From NCBI GenBank assembly GCA_963728975.1, contig CAVSMF010000005.1, positions 1 to 64,000 of the forward strand: a stretch of DNA of 64,000 nt, read 5' to 3'. Origin of the DNA: an uncultured Verrucomicrobiae bacterium. GTDB lineage: Bacteria > Verrucomicrobiota > Verrucomicrobiia > Chthoniobacterales > UBA10450. A model generated the notes under the pieces. That model had not been told where the DNA came from. It saw only the letters and a list, made by a program, of their open reading frames with translations, and did no database searches. Below, piece after piece: positions 83 to 4,039 of the stretch (the first letter of the stretch is position 1; each line of letters opens with the position of its first letter). Both the position numbers and the translations under genes were made by a program.

Positions 83-394
83 GTGCGCCTTATGAAATCG
101 ATTCGATCTTGGTTAGTAGCCCGGTTCTATCCTGGGTTTCTAGAGGAGTTTTACGCAGCACGTGAGATTCAGCGTCGCGAACAGAGGAGTTACATTCGCA
201 GGTTCACCTTTATTGTCGGCTTTTTTGCGTTTTTCATCCCGATGCTAATCGTTTTGTTTTCAGCGGCGGTTCCGCTTGTTTACAAGATTCTGCTCTTTAT
301 TGCCGTTTGGGGAGTGGCTTGCGTTCGGGAAACCATCACCGAGCATTACTCCCTTCAGTTGCTGCGCCGGGATCGTGGCCAGCCGAAGACCTAA
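83..394 (+). CDS. cassette ORF, small membrane protein (2 predicted TM), unknown function
   Basis: The ORF fills the cassette. Its stop TAA (392-394) lies inside the attC R'' box aCCTAACc. Hydrophobic segments are present. Confidence 0.45.
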   Translation: MRLMKSIRSWLVARFYPGFLEEFYAAREIQRREQRSYIRRFTFIVGFFAFFIPMLIVLFSAAVPLVYKILLFIAVWGVACVRETITEHYSLQLLRRDRGQPKT

Positions 395-515
395 CCGGGC
401 GATGCAGCTAACACATTTCCCGTTCAGCGTTCACTTTTTAAAATGATTAGTGTATCCTTCATTGCAGTTCAGGCTTCGCCTCCGGAAGGCGTAGCTGATC
501 TTATTCTCGTTAGAT
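389..515 (+). other. attC site (R'' ACCTAAC 389-395; R' GTTAGAT 509-515)
   Basis: The inverse core and the core flank a palindrome: gatgcagctaacacatttcc ... ggaaggcgtagctgatc. Confidence 0.65.
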
Positions 516-516
516 C

Positions 517-852
517 GTGAGCGCACTTCGCAGGTTGGCAATCGTCTCTGTCGTCTCCTTTAGCGTATTGTTAACGCTGACGGTCATGCTATTCCTTGCC
601 ACTGAATGGGCGAATCGAAGTGCCCAATTTGCGTTCGGAGATAAGGCGCGTCGTTTGCAAATCGACGGAAAGTCGGAGGCCTATGTCTTAGAGCACTTCG
701 GGCCGCCTAGTCACACAAACCCGTCGACAGATGGTTCGGGCCACGTGCTCGTATACGTGCCGTGCAAGTGGTCTTTCTGGCCTAGCTACTCCAAGATTGC
801 CATAGATGATCGCACCAGCACTGTATCCTTTTGGATGATAAACTCCGACTGA
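517..852 (+). CDS. cassette ORF, N-terminally anchored hypothetical protein
   Basis: GTG start directly after R'. N-terminal TM helix. No recognisable domain. Confidence 0.4.
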   Translation: MSALRRLAIVSVVSFSVLLTLTVMLFLATEWANRSAQFAFGDKARRLQIDGKSEAYVLEHFGPPSHTNPSTDGSGHVLVYVPCKWSFWPSYSKIAIDDRTSTVSFWMINSD

Positions 853-855
853 GCA

Positions 856-978
856 ATCTAACCAGGCGATGGAGCCAACCGCTACCCGCTGCGCGTTTAC
901 ATTTTAGATGATTGAAACACTTACACTTCGATTGATGCTCGCCGCCGGTAGCGGTGGCTCATCTTCTTCTCGTTAGAC
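856..978 (+). other. attC site (R'' AATCTAAC; R' GTTAGAC 972-978)
   Basis: ctaaccaggcgatggagccaaccgctacc ... ggtagcggtggctcatcttcttctcgttagac; the arms are complementary (ccgctacc / ggtagcgg). Confidence 0.65.
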
Positions 979-1020
979 GCATGGACCTCGTTCCGAAGAA
1001 GAAAAGCAGCCCTGCGAGCA

Positions 1021-1524
1021 TTGGCGGTTCATGCGCGATCATCGCCCTTTTTCGCTCCGCTGGTTAACGCGGGTCTGTTTTTCCTCATCTCGCTGCCGCT
1101 GATCTTCGCTGCCTTCGTGCTTTCGATTGTCGCAATGGCGAAGGGGCGCGTCATCGGGGGAATTGCACTTCTGATGAGTCTGATGATCGTAGGTCCAGGG
1201 TCGTGCGAGTTCATGATCAACCGGGACAAGTGGCTGCATCACCCAGAGCAAATTGAGGCGGAGAGCAGGCAAAATCTGACGAGACTTAAACGCGAAAAAG
1301 AGATCGACCGCCAATCAAACGAAGGGGTTTCATGGGACGAACATTATCTAGCCACAGTGTTGCGGGAGATAAATTACTCGACCCCTGACGGCAAAGTGAC
1401 ATTAGCGCCAGGTTTGATGCTCGACGCTGGGGTTTCCAGTGACGGGGAAAAAATCTGTGTGATTTACCGTGGCGACAGATTCATTGTTAAGCCTAGTGAC
1501 GTAATCTTAAGAAAAAAGAAGTAG
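1021..1524 (+). CDS. cassette ORF, membrane protein, unknown function (start uncertain)
   Basis: ORF within the cassette. Hydrophobic N-terminal half. Alternative in-frame ATG near 1134. Confidence 0.4.
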   Translation: MAVHARSSPFFAPLVNAGLFFLISLPLIFAAFVLSIVAMAKGRVIGGIALLMSLMIVGPGSCEFMINRDKWLHHPEQIEAESRQNLTRLKREKEIDRQSNEGVSWDEHYLATVLREINYSTPDGKVTLAPGLMLDAGVSSDGEKICVIYRGDRFIVKPSDVILRKKK

Positions 1525-1563
1525 CGCTGACCGACACGGTCATCCGCGTTATTAGAGCGTGAG

Positions 1564-1657
1564 GTCTAACCAATCGATGAAGCCAACGGCCCTTGGCGAA
1601 TGAACGCGAGCAACCTTGCCACAGCACCTGCCGTGGCTTATCTCTGTCTCGTTAGGT
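1564..1657 (+). other. attC site, short (~94 bp) (R'' GTCTAAC 1564-1570; R' GTTAGGT 1651-1657)
   Basis: tctaaccaatcgatgaagccaacggcc ... ggcttatctctgtctcgttaggt. Confidence 0.6.
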
Positions 1658-1660
1658 CCA

Positions 1661-2512: not shown

Positions 2513-2540
2513 TTCAGCCTTCTTTTGTATGGCGCACCAA

Positions 2541-2665
2541 CCATTTAAGCAGTCGGTGGAGCTAAACGCCAATCGGCGTAGTTCCATTTTTGAGATGACG
2601 AGAACCTATTCATTTCGAGCACCACGCGCTCTTGGTGGCGGTAGCTCACTTCTGTCTCGTTAGAT
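2541..2665 (+). other. attC site with degenerate R'' (ccatTTAAGCag) and intact R' GTTAGAT 2659-2665
   Basis: ggtggagctaaacgcc ... ggtggcggtagctcacttctgtctcgttagat; the left core is mutated. Confidence 0.45.
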
Positions 2666-2722
2666 GGTGCGTGTGCTTGCAGTCTGAAGCAAGGGCTGAC
2701 TTTTGAAGTCATCGGCACGATC

Positions 2723-2962
2723 TTGGCGATGGCCGCCTCCTCCTGGGTATTTGGAGTGCGCAACGAGCGAGCATTTTCCACATTGGACATTATGTTACTG
2801 TGGGTAGCTATGTGGCCACAGTTGCTAGCCGAGCAGTTCGGATTGTCATGCCATAGCTCGCTAGCATCACTGAGCCTAAATTGCTTTGGGTGGACCATTG
2901 TCGGATTGGTACTGGGGGCGCTTTGGAAGAAGACCCATGCGAGATCACATCCAATTATCTAA
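2723..2962 (+). CDS. cassette ORF, small membrane protein (79 aa)
   Basis: Hydrophobic segments. Stop TAA 2960-2962 lies inside R'' ATCTAACC. Confidence 0.35.
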   Translation: MAMAASSWVFGVRNERAFSTLDIMLLWVAMWPQLLAEQFGLSCHSSLASLSLNCFGWTIVGLVLGALWKKTHARSHPII

Positions 2963-3080
2963 CCAGTCAGTGGAGCTAACCGCCACCCGCCGTGCGTTCA
3001 CGTTTTTCCATGATTAGAATCTCTTCACTTCGAGCATCACTCGATGTCGGTGGCGGTAGCTCACTTCTGTCTCGTTAGGC
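2957..3080 (+). other. attC site (R'' ATCTAAC 2957-2963; R' GTTAGGC 3074-3080)
   Basis: gagctaAccgccacc ... ggtggcggtagctc; the arms are complementary with one extra, unpaired base. Confidence 0.65.
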
Positions 3081-3090
3081 GAATAGTGCG

Positions 3091-3387
3091 ATGAGCTCAT
3101 CACCGGAGGTAGTGCTTGGGATCGCGTGGTTTCGTCCCGACCAGTGGGAACTGCTACGATCGGTGTCTGCTGATCCTGATGTGTTGGAGCCGACACACGG
3201 CGAGTGGGAGAAGCTCGCGCGAAGAACGATTCAGGATCTAGCGCGCCAGGGTATTCTCGCTCGAAAAGTTGACGTGGATGTGAAGCGCATTCAAGCCTGG
3301 TGCAAGGCGCAGCAGCGACCGCTAGATGCTTCGGCAAGAGCAGCGTATGCTGCAGAGCGTCTTCGAGATGGCGCCGAATTCGCCTAA
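3091..3387 (+). CDS. cassette ORF, cytoplasmic hypothetical protein (98 aa)
   Basis: ATG 10 bp after R'. Stop TAA lies inside R'' GCCTAACC. Confidence 0.45.
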   Translation: MSSSPEVVLGIAWFRPDQWELLRSVSADPDVLEPTHGEWEKLARRTIQDLARQGILARKVDVDVKRIQAWCKAQQRPLDASARAAYAAERLRDGAEFA

Positions 3388-3505
3388 CCAACCGATGCAG
3401 CCAACGCCTTCCCGTTCAGCGTTCACTTCCAAAATGATTAGTGTATCAAATATTGCAGTTCAGCCTCGCCCTCGGAAGGTGTAGCTGATCTTTTTCTCGT
3501 TAGGC
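3382..3505 (+). other. attC site (R'' GCCTAAC 3382-3388; R' GTTAGGC 3499-3505)
   Basis: gatgcagccaacgccttcc ... ggaaggtgtagctgatctttttctcgttaggc. Confidence 0.65.
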
Positions 3506-3524
3506 CTAATCGAAACGTTACGCA

Positions 3525-4022
3525 ATGCGACCATTTACGAAAATTGCTCTGAAGGCGGTTCTGATCGTTGTCGCAGCTTTTGCGGTTCTCGTCGTTATCG
3601 TTCGCTCGCTTTTCATTGTCTCGCCGATGAGGACTGATTCTATGGAGCCACTCATCGCGACTACCGATATTGTCGTCGCTACGAAGCTGTTTAGCGCTTC
3701 TTCACTTCGCAGCGGAGATTTGGTTGTCGCGGACATTCCCGCTCCCAGAGGAGGTCGGGTTCTTACAGTTCGCAAGATTCAGCAACAGCCCGACACTCCG
3801 AGTGACAGCTTTTACCTGCAAGCGGCCAACAGCAATGGCGCTGACTCGCGGCTTTTTGGCCCACTACCAGCGTCAGCCATTCGTGCCAAAGTCATTTGGA
3901 TTTATCGTAGGAGGCCTAACCAATCGCTGGAGCTAACCGCCACCCGTCGCGCATTCAGCCTGTTCTCTGTCTTCCGTCCTCTGTCCTCCGATTGTATGCT
4001 CGCCCTCGGTGGCGGTAGCTGA
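3525..4022 (+). CDS. cassette ORF, S26/S24-type signal-peptidase-I-like serine peptidase with N-terminal TM; the ORF reads through its own attC
   Basis: N-terminal TM followed by an S-MEP motif (RTDSMEPLI). GDLVV...P..GGRVLTVRKI resembles the SPase I / LexA-fold Ser-Lys dyad region. The frame has no stop in R'', so the ORF extends about 35 codons into the attC (biological end uncertain). Confidence 0.5.
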   Translation: MRPFTKIALKAVLIVVAAFAVLVVIVRSLFIVSPMRTDSMEPLIATTDIVVATKLFSASSLRSGDLVVADIPAPRGGRVLTVRKIQQQPDTPSDSFYLQAANSNGADSRLFGPLPASAIRAKVIWIYRRRPNQSLELTATRRAFSLFSVFRPLSSDCMLALGGGS

Positions 4023-4039
4023 GCTTTTTCTCGTTAGAC
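3914..4039 (+). other. attC site (R'' GCCTAAC 3914-3920; R' GTTAGAC 4033-4039)
   Basis: gagctaaccgccacccgtcgcg ... cggtggcggtagctgagctttttctcgttagac. Confidence 0.65.

Follow-up and report, generated by a model that had tools for sequence, protein, structure and literature searches.

Why do the two arms of a repeated palindrome remain complementary while their letters change from one copy to the next? The question is raised by a stretch of 64,000 nucleotides from an uncultured Verrucomicrobiae bacterium (GenBank assembly GCA_963728975.1, contig CAVSMF010000005.1, positions 1 to 64,000), which we call the window. From its first base to about 17.9 kb the window is built of units of one small plus-strand open reading frame (ORF) followed by one repeat of about 120 nt; about 26 such repeats are present, all on the plus strand, and the array is open at the left window edge. 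An original prediction made from the letters alone took them for attC sites, the recombination sites of integron gene cassettes, and claimed that their left and right arms covary. The repeats were found where it placed them. It is very probable that they are the attC sites of a large sedentary chromosomal integron of a soil member of Chthoniobacterales (Verrucomicrobiota), and that their arms are kept complementary as a folded substrate.

Anatomy of the repeats and covariation between their arms

The anatomy was read by comparing the left arm with the reverse complement of the right arm in 441 distinct sites from the window and 118 public contigs, with position 1 as the first base of R''. Read in this way, a site consists of R'' (RYCTAAC), a 5-nt spacer, an L'' box GAT[G]nAGCy[A]AC, a variable stem of 7 bp, a loop region some 55 nt long, the complementary stem with L', an 8-nt spacer, and R' (GTTAGRY). 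CTAAC stands at positions 3-7 in at least 98% of the 441 sites, preceded by R and Y at positions 1-2, and the right end is the mirror image, GTTAGRY; both ends fit the core sites RYYYAAC/GTTRRRY. The end blocks had been called invariant. They are nearly so, the exact left block being found in 13 of 22 window sites.

Positions 1-7 of the R box pair with the last seven bases. GAT (13-15) is paired, G16 has no partner, 17-22 are paired and one A of A22/A23 is partnerless; C24 and positions 25-31 are paired, C32 is usually partnerless, and one further pair follows at 33. Past the bulge at 32 just this G33 pair is supported (72.9% versus 61.6% expected), and no common register exists beyond it. The unpaired bases are confined to the left ('') arm, where one or two extra bases had been predicted, and they are conserved: position 16 is G in 421 of the 441 sites, A22 is found in 418, A23 in 438 and C32 in 304. 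If A23 is taken as the bulge, as by RNAalifold, the extra bases lie at 16 and 23, separated by a stem of 6 bp. In published attC sites the extra-helical bases are at position 16 (usually G on the bottom strand) and at 23/24 (a conserved T), with 6-bp spacing (PMC5027507). The positions, the spacing and the bottom-strand T23 of our sites match this geometry, while the base at 16 differs. The left spacer has 5 nt (C-A-n-n-C) and the right spacer 8 nt, or 9 nt in about 17% of sites; the two are not complementary, and the right one is conserved and purine-only (GAGAAnAA on the bottom strand). The variable terminal structure of attC sites is also present, with window sites of 94 to 235 nt.

Do the arms covary more than chance would allow? 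In an alignment of 16 window sites (A1), 92.1% of the cells are paired, against 81.1 ± 1.2% when the 3' partners are shuffled, and none of 500 shuffles reaches the observed value. Both partners change in 10 of 24 pairs, the covariation score is 0.336 versus 0.155, and sliding the partners by 1-3 columns leaves 22-43% paired. The R-box helix and the L-box/stem helices were recovered by RNAalifold from A1 without structure input. A second alignment (A2, 150 sites) adds 134 sites of less than 80% mutual identity from 70 other contigs, which reduces the relatedness within the array. Here 90.7% of cells are paired versus 77.6 ± 0.4% after shuffling, double changes occur in 16 of 24 pairs and in 543 cells (228 ± 25 after shuffling), the score is 0.334 versus 0.121, and the slid control gives 17-38%. 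From A2, whose consensus is disturbed by gaps that MAFFT placed in the loop and spacer, RNAalifold recovered only 7 pairs.

A further, anchored analysis of 406 sites compared Watson-Crick pairing with that expected if the arms were independent. At position 17 it is 89.9% versus 38.5% expected (C-G in 165 sites, G-C in 148, A-T in 52); the corresponding values are 92.9% versus 38.6% at position 21, 86.5% versus 43.9% at 25, 82.3% versus 33.0% at 28, 76.8% versus 38.3% at 29 and 75.1% versus 31.1% at 30. True partners share 0.33-1.10 bits of mutual information (0.18 at left position 31), the most variable pairs having 0.93, 1.10, 0.69, 0.99, 0.61 and 0.70 bits, while non-partner columns share at most 0.28 bits and adjacent positions of the same arm just 0.02-0.36 bits. 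With linkage low within an arm and high between partners, the pairs vary nearly independently, each locked to its partner about 90 nt away. The claimed covariation between the arms is thus confirmed as real and above chance, in both alignments and with mutual information that is specific to the partner. No covariation is seen at the two outermost positions of the R box, R and Y, although they vary (54.9% paired versus 47.2% expected, and 51.2% versus 48.4%). This is expected if exchange takes place at G|TTAGRY, since the last six bases then belong to the next cassette.

The individual arms quoted in the original prediction did not all stand. Site 389-515 had been given a left arm GCCTTCC; it reads ACATTTCC, an uncompensated decayed stem. 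Sites 3382 and 4409 do belong with it in one family (A), but their GGAAGGT makes a G.T wobble on the top strand only, and at 3382 gccaac also faces gtagc with a C/A mismatch. Pair 17 is mismatched in sites 8849, 3914 and 11651. As to the few families into which the sites had been sorted, family A (389, 3382, 4409, 7845, 8849; 79-86% identity) and family C (4914, 8337; 93%) are genuine, whereas the members of a supposed family B (2111, 2957, 3914) have the proximal stem CGCCAC(C) in common with an overall identity of just 61-67%. The array is less homogeneous than had been implied: about a dozen attC lineages are represented in 23 of its sites, and many are only 55-70% identical.

The folded strand and the alternatives

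Which strand is the folded one? DNA folding favours the bottom strand over the top in all 10 window sites folded and in 342 of 402 sites overall, with a mean difference of -2.35 kcal/mol. The top strand has a GC skew of -0.149 and an AT skew of -0.144, so the bottom strand is purine-rich, as it is in attC sites of mobile integrons (PMC5027507). At paired positions 13-31, wobbles that put G.T in the bottom strand only number 224, and those in the top strand only 93; this asymmetry could come partly from mutation bias on a strand that is often single-stranded, and is supporting rather than decisive. The top strand folds into the same helices too, and the lowest-energy fold of site 389-515 differs from the canonical hairpin.

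In the mechanism that we propose, the bottom strand, once single-stranded, would fold into an imperfect hairpin, and the integrase would cleave the folded strand in R'. Integron integrases cleave the attC bottom strand between the A and C of the AAC triplet. The bottom strand is presumably the substrate in vivo, and an integrase would presumably act catalytically on the sites. A substitution in one arm would be tolerated only until its partner changes too, as recognition would depend on structure, and such recognition would therefore leave a compensatory pattern pair by pair.

Could the covariation simply be an artefact of a few repeat families, each with its own arms, so that any variable columns correlate? 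Many window sites do belong to families A or C or are duplicates, and the shuffle control ignores relatedness. The slid-partner control keeps the relatedness, yet pairing falls to 17-38% there. Left position 17 shares 0.93 bits with its partner and at most 0.28 bits with other right-arm columns, left-arm columns share at most 0.36 bits among themselves, and the 334 standard-length sites fall into 218 loop-sequence clusters at 85% identity. With the mutual-information matrix diagonal in this way, family structure does not explain the covariation, and we give this explanation almost no chance. A subtler one is that the arms match without functional selection, each attC being born as a near-perfect palindrome, or repaired from arm to arm, and then decaying. 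The distal sites are visibly decayed (37.5, 20.4, 15.6 and 13.7 bits in the covariance model described below), and compensatory switches within families are few, no pair having them in more than 3 of 12 families, although just 12 families have three or more members, too few to inform. But arm copying or correction would erase the unpaired bases, which are fixed in more than 90% of the 441 sites (G16 in 421, A23 in 438), and pairing is not maintained at the outermost positions of the R box, which pass from one cassette to another. Linkage is very low between neighbouring stem positions (0.02-0.36 bits) but tight between partners some 90 nt away from each other; this needs many separate paired changes, and inheritance from a few founder palindromes does not explain it. 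We regard such an origin as very improbable.

Is the pairing then kept for RNA rather than DNA? The hairpins might serve in a polycistronic cassette transcript as stabilisers, attenuators or translation barriers. It is in favour of this idea that attC hairpins in mRNA are reported to impede translation of downstream cassettes (reviewed in PMC8876359), that the top strand forms the same helices, and that about half of the sites have a short ORF extending through the right arm. However, an RNA of top-strand sense would tolerate G.U in the top strand, and the opposite was found (224 bottom-only versus 93 top-only wobbles); folding favours the bottom strand in 342 of 402 sites, the arm with the unpaired bases is the one that identifies this strand as integrase substrate (PMC5027507), and no T run follows the hairpin. 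A role in RNA as the reason for the pairing is thus very improbable. Repeats of other kinds were also considered. A CRISPR (clustered regularly interspaced short palindromic repeats) array, repetitive extragenic palindromic (REP) elements and intrinsic terminators are ruled out by the ORF-sized units, the attC core consensus, the asymmetric bulges and the absence of a T run after the hairpin.

The analysis therefore supports what had been proposed, attC sites under selection for single-strand folding with one cognate integrase, and every testable feature fits. Several points that weigh against this explanation should be noticed. The window contains no intI, attI or cassette promoter (Pc), and taken alone it is an attC cluster without an integrase. 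As its first extra-helical base the bottom strand has C in 421 of 441 sites instead of the usual G (PMC5027507), and the R'-L' spacer has 8 nt and a conserved sequence, against the usual unconserved 5-6 nt. Uncompensated mismatches occur at sites 389, 3382, 8849 and 11651, and the distal sites are decayed, so that the constraint is not uniform. Finally, the folding energies are those of naked strands under nearest-neighbour DNA parameters, and the folding z-scores of sites 4914 and 9902 against shuffles are not significant.

The short ORF just mentioned deserves a separate comment. The loop of most sites has a semi-conserved TTTnnnATGAyT (for example at 440-452, 904-915 and 7546-7557 of the window, and in L001-L118, the related loci from public contigs). 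Its ATG opens a frame of 15-29 codons, and in 180 of 343 sites the stop codon of this frame is the very TAG of GTTAG in the R' core; the other frames mostly end on TGA in L'. Of the 133 loop ATGs in 127 divergent representatives, whose loops are below 70% identity, 85 share the frame of the TAG of R', where one third is expected, and 32 of 55 ATGA motifs are still in frame when the modal 66-nt spacing is excluded. The mini-ORF shows no clear periodicity in codon-position entropy (1.20, 1.26 and 1.36 bits), no conserved peptide and no evident Shine-Dalgarno sequence. Lacking codon periodicity and peptide conservation, it is a lead only, and we think it unlikely that every attC of the lineage also serves as a leader that is translated. 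Short ORFs in attI1 and attC (ORF-11, ORF-17, ORF-18; the short ORF in attC) do couple translation (reviewed in PMC8876359). In about half of the sites the loop frame has the stop codon of ORF-11, the TAG within the GTTAG core; unlike these coupling ORFs, it is enriched in its reading-frame relation only, with no Shine-Dalgarno sequence, peptide conservation or periodicity. If it were translated, the ribosome reading the leader would melt the mRNA hairpin and hand over to the next cassette, a built-in, lineage-wide form of the coupling by ORF-11 or the short ORF in attC known from class 1 integrons.

Integrase, cassette mobility and the array site by site

Where, then, is the integrase? No IntI homologue was found by tblastn in the 64-kb window. 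The cassette ORFs and the top strands of the attC sites point rightward, so intI is expected past the left window edge, and we infer that the gene lies there. The same attC type adjoins full-length IntI homologues in seven related loci (tblastn; L109, L019, L025, L118, L048, L088 and L098). For example, the integrase of L019 reaches 465 bits on TIGR02249 'integron integrase', for which the cut-off is 265. It has the ALERKY motif found in the IntI-specific insertion, and it is divergent from the cassettes, which is the canonical layout.

Evidence on mobility comes from L119 (ena:ERZ25039539:contig_33246), a 19.8-kb contig of a closely related strain, which is 98.4% identical to the window over 8948-16662. 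L119 is without the three cassettes (7620-8947) that the window has between a split attC and the cassette of an S26-like peptidase. The cassette of a TonB_C protein among them (window 7944-8360) sits elsewhere in L119, at 821-1237, with 98.8% identity. The breakpoints of the rearrangement fall in the conserved right arm of attC, and by this comparison of window 5931-16662 with L119 the difference appears to be the footprint of cassette excision and reinsertion.

A covariance model was trained on 16 window repeats, and the 64-kb window was scanned with it. It gave 24 matches, all on the plus strand and all within 1-17325, and none in 18-64 kb. Sedentary chromosomal integrons are large arrays, of more than about 20 cassettes, that lie on the chromosome instead of a plasmid or transposon and have attC sites resembling one another. 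The window agrees with this in its about 26 sites in 18 kb, followed by 46 kb with no attC match; the homogeneity of the sites is only moderate. The attC type has 0 matches among 72,556 plasmids. Rfam at gathering thresholds gives no match in the window, attC not being an Rfam family. Eight of the longest cassette ORFs end exactly on the TAA within RYCTAAC. The features of the array are as follows, with scores from the covariance model unless stated otherwise.

1..17900, + strand: integron gene-cassette array; all 24 covariance-model matches within 1-17325
1..78, + strand: attC truncated by the window start, right part only; 32.8 bits over model positions 48-123, 5' end missing
389..515, + strand: attC of family A with decayed left stem (ACATTTCC versus GGAAGGC); 109.5 bits
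856..978, + strand: attC with stem CGCTACC/GGTAGCG; 121.8 bits
1564..1657, + strand: short attC of 94 nt; 67.3 bits
2111..2239, + strand: attC with stem CGCCAC; 95.3 bits
2543..2665, + strand: attC with degenerate R'' (TTTAAG); 91.0 bits
2957..3080, + strand: attC with stem CGCCACC and L box AGT/ACT, both arms changed; 121.6 bits
3382..3505, + strand: attC of family A; 121.4 bits
3914..4039, + strand: attC of the duplicated S26-like cassette; 106.7 bits
4409..4533, + strand: attC of family A; 125.1 bits
4914..5040, + strand: attC of family C (CGCTC/GAGCG); 100.5 bits
5932..5950, + strand: left end (R'' to mid L'') of an attC split by an insertion sequence
5951..7512, - strand: IS110-family insertion sequence within the L'' box; PF02371, 34.8 bits (above cut-off)
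7513..7619, + strand: remainder of the split attC; 70.5 bits
7845..7968, + strand: attC of family A with perfect stem GCCTTCC/GGAAGGC; 118.3 bits
8337..8463, + strand: attC of family C; 98.5 bits
8849..8972, + strand: attC of family A; 115.4 bits
9381..9506, + strand: attC, duplicate of 3914-4039 (98% identical); 112.0 bits
9902..10032, + strand: attC with an additional local hairpin in the left arm; 89.6 bits
10466..10669, + strand: long attC of 204 nt with stem GCCTTCC/GGAAGGC; 70.5 bits, outside the model training set
11651..11856, + strand: long attC of 206 nt; 78.8 bits, outside the model training set
13127..13245, + strand: attC with stem GCCGCC/GGCGGC; 82.6 bits
13879..14104, + strand: long attC of 226 nt, weaker match; 37.5 bits
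14609..14713, + strand: degenerate or truncated attC, left arm kept and right arm lost; 20.4 bits, E = 0.0019
14762..14996, + strand: degenerate long attC, R'' decayed to CCAAT, right end intact; no model match at E <= 1
16450..16561, + strand: degenerate attC with R' = GTCAG (16555-16559); 13.7 bits for 16531-16561
17168..17327, + strand: degenerate attC with R' = GTTCG (17321-17325); 15.6 bits
17857..17880, + strand: last attC remnant, left end only (CCTAACCGGGCGATGCG...), at the distal end of the array; read from the sequence

The quality of the sites drops rightward over 13879-17900, with 37.5, 20.4, undetected, 13.7 and 15.6 bits in turn. The sites at 10466-10669, 11651-11856, 13879-14104, 14762-14996 and 17168-17327 form a long subset of 160-235 nt. 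Several of them share a loop insert of GACTAC repeats and ...GACTACGATTTATGCTCG..., followed by a GC-rich stretch resembling proline and arginine codons; the insert could represent a family with a longer loop or a small element nested in the loop.

The split site (5932-5950 and 7513-7619) is of the commonest type in related genomes, where 60 sites in 39 loci share at least 80% identity with it. The IS110-family element at 5951-7512 sits in its L'' box, between GATGCAG and (AG)CGAAC, with AG at both junctions. Its ORF (6596-7492, minus strand, 298 aa) appears truncated at the C-terminal end; it matches PF02371 above the cut-off (34.8 bits) and NF033542 'IS110 family RNA-guided transposase' below it (55.5 bits). 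The same insertion is present in L119, where it is only 92.7% identical, versus 98.4% in the flanking cassettes. Targeting of attC sites is already known for insertion sequences of the IS1111-attC group. The element is one that targets the attC site and is no part of the attC mechanism.

The cargo is typical for integron cassettes. By Pfam it includes an alpha/beta hydrolase, an EryCIII-like glycosyltransferase, an Rce1-like protease, an O-methyltransferase, an S26-like peptidase, a protein with a TonB C-terminal domain and a GYF_2 protein, and several ORFs have no Pfam match. The S26-like peptidase cassette occurs twice, at 3506-4039 and 8973-9506, with 528 of 534 positions identical; the two copies differ at attC pair 17, which is mismatched in the 3914 copy and paired in the 9381 copy. 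Two Candidatus Udaeobacter contigs of assembly SMAG_U4966 contain segments (L029 3307-3964 and L022 7715-8000) with 89.5-94.5% identity to the alpha/beta-hydrolase cassette (about 10659-11690); the cassettes next to it have no match in these contigs at 85% identity or more. The cassette at 11879-13132 encodes a 417-aa EryCIII-like protein of the UDP-glycosyltransferase type (PF06722, 65 bits). Since the EryCIII-like family includes macrolide glycosyltransferases, this is a possible antibiotic-modifying cassette of a soil integron. Outside the array and unrelated to the integron, a 49-bp tandem repeat forms two arrays about 550 bp apart, at 53724-54165 (9.0 copies) and 54721-54978 (5.2 copies), with 93% matches; its unit holds the inverted repeat AACCGGCC-ACA-GGCCGGTT.

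Known systems, spread of the class and significance

How does this class of attC compare with those already known? An attC site is recognised through the fold of its bottom strand rather than its sequence, which keeps the two arms complementary (PMC5027507). The generic covariance model of IntegronFinder (Cury et al. 2016; PMC4889954) and the taxon-specific models of Ghaly et al. 2021 (PMC8352920) both rely on the structure-over-sequence property that is found here, with sites more alike within taxa than between them. Integrons in Verrucomicrobia are already on record (PMC4889954); Verrucomicrobia is not among the 11 taxa with published attC models (PMC8352920), so the window class would make a twelfth, and we found no published description of this particular class. 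The compensatory arms are textbook attC behaviour, while the attC class itself is lineage-specific. As the phenomenon flagged is the accepted basis of attC recognition, nothing new is learnt from it on integrons in general.

The nearest likeness is to the Vibrio cholerae repeats (VCR), which are also imperfect palindromes of about 120-130 nt, one per cassette and in a single orientation, in a superintegron whose large array is made up mostly of small ORFs of unknown function. VCR-type sites have the RYYYAAC...GTTRRRY ends, two to three extra-helical bases in the '' arm (16 and 23/24, with 6 bp between) (PMC5027507), an unpaired central spacer, a long variable terminal structure, and a bottom strand that is more stable and purine-rich. 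The differences lie in the host, here of Verrucomicrobiota, in the first extra base (C instead of G on the bottom strand), in the spacer (5 nt/8 nt, with the 8-nt side conserved as GAGAAnAA), and in the heterogeneity of the window array. In VCR arrays the sites are about 90% alike. REP elements with their mosaic combinations (BIME, bacterial interspersed mosaic elements) and miniature inverted-repeat transposable elements (MITEs) are likewise repeated imperfect palindromes between genes. Unlike them, the window sites have the attC core consensus, a fixed orientation, asymmetric unpaired bases and one site per ORF-sized unit, an integrase adjoins the repeats in relatives, and the rearrangement breakpoints fall at R'.

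An exact-pattern scan found the class in at least 118 stretches, and nearly all of the matches listed are from Chthoniobacterales, Verrucomicrobiae or Udaeobacter assemblies. Candidatus Udaeobacter, within Chthoniobacterales, is a widespread and abundant soil bacterium. Among the matches listed, L006, L038, L047 and L058 are labelled as Acidobacteria, Terriglobales, Pyrinomonadaceae or Limnocylindria; these labels from outside the phylum could reflect a repetitive region that was binned wrongly, or cassettes exchanged between phyla.

What does the class offer, then? It provides natural attC variants, which carry C in place of G at the first extra-helical position and a conserved purine spacer of 8 nt. 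Moreover, a covariance model built from the 441 sites could assign cassettes in soil metagenomes to Chthoniobacterales, in the way of the models available for 11 other taxa (PMC8352920).

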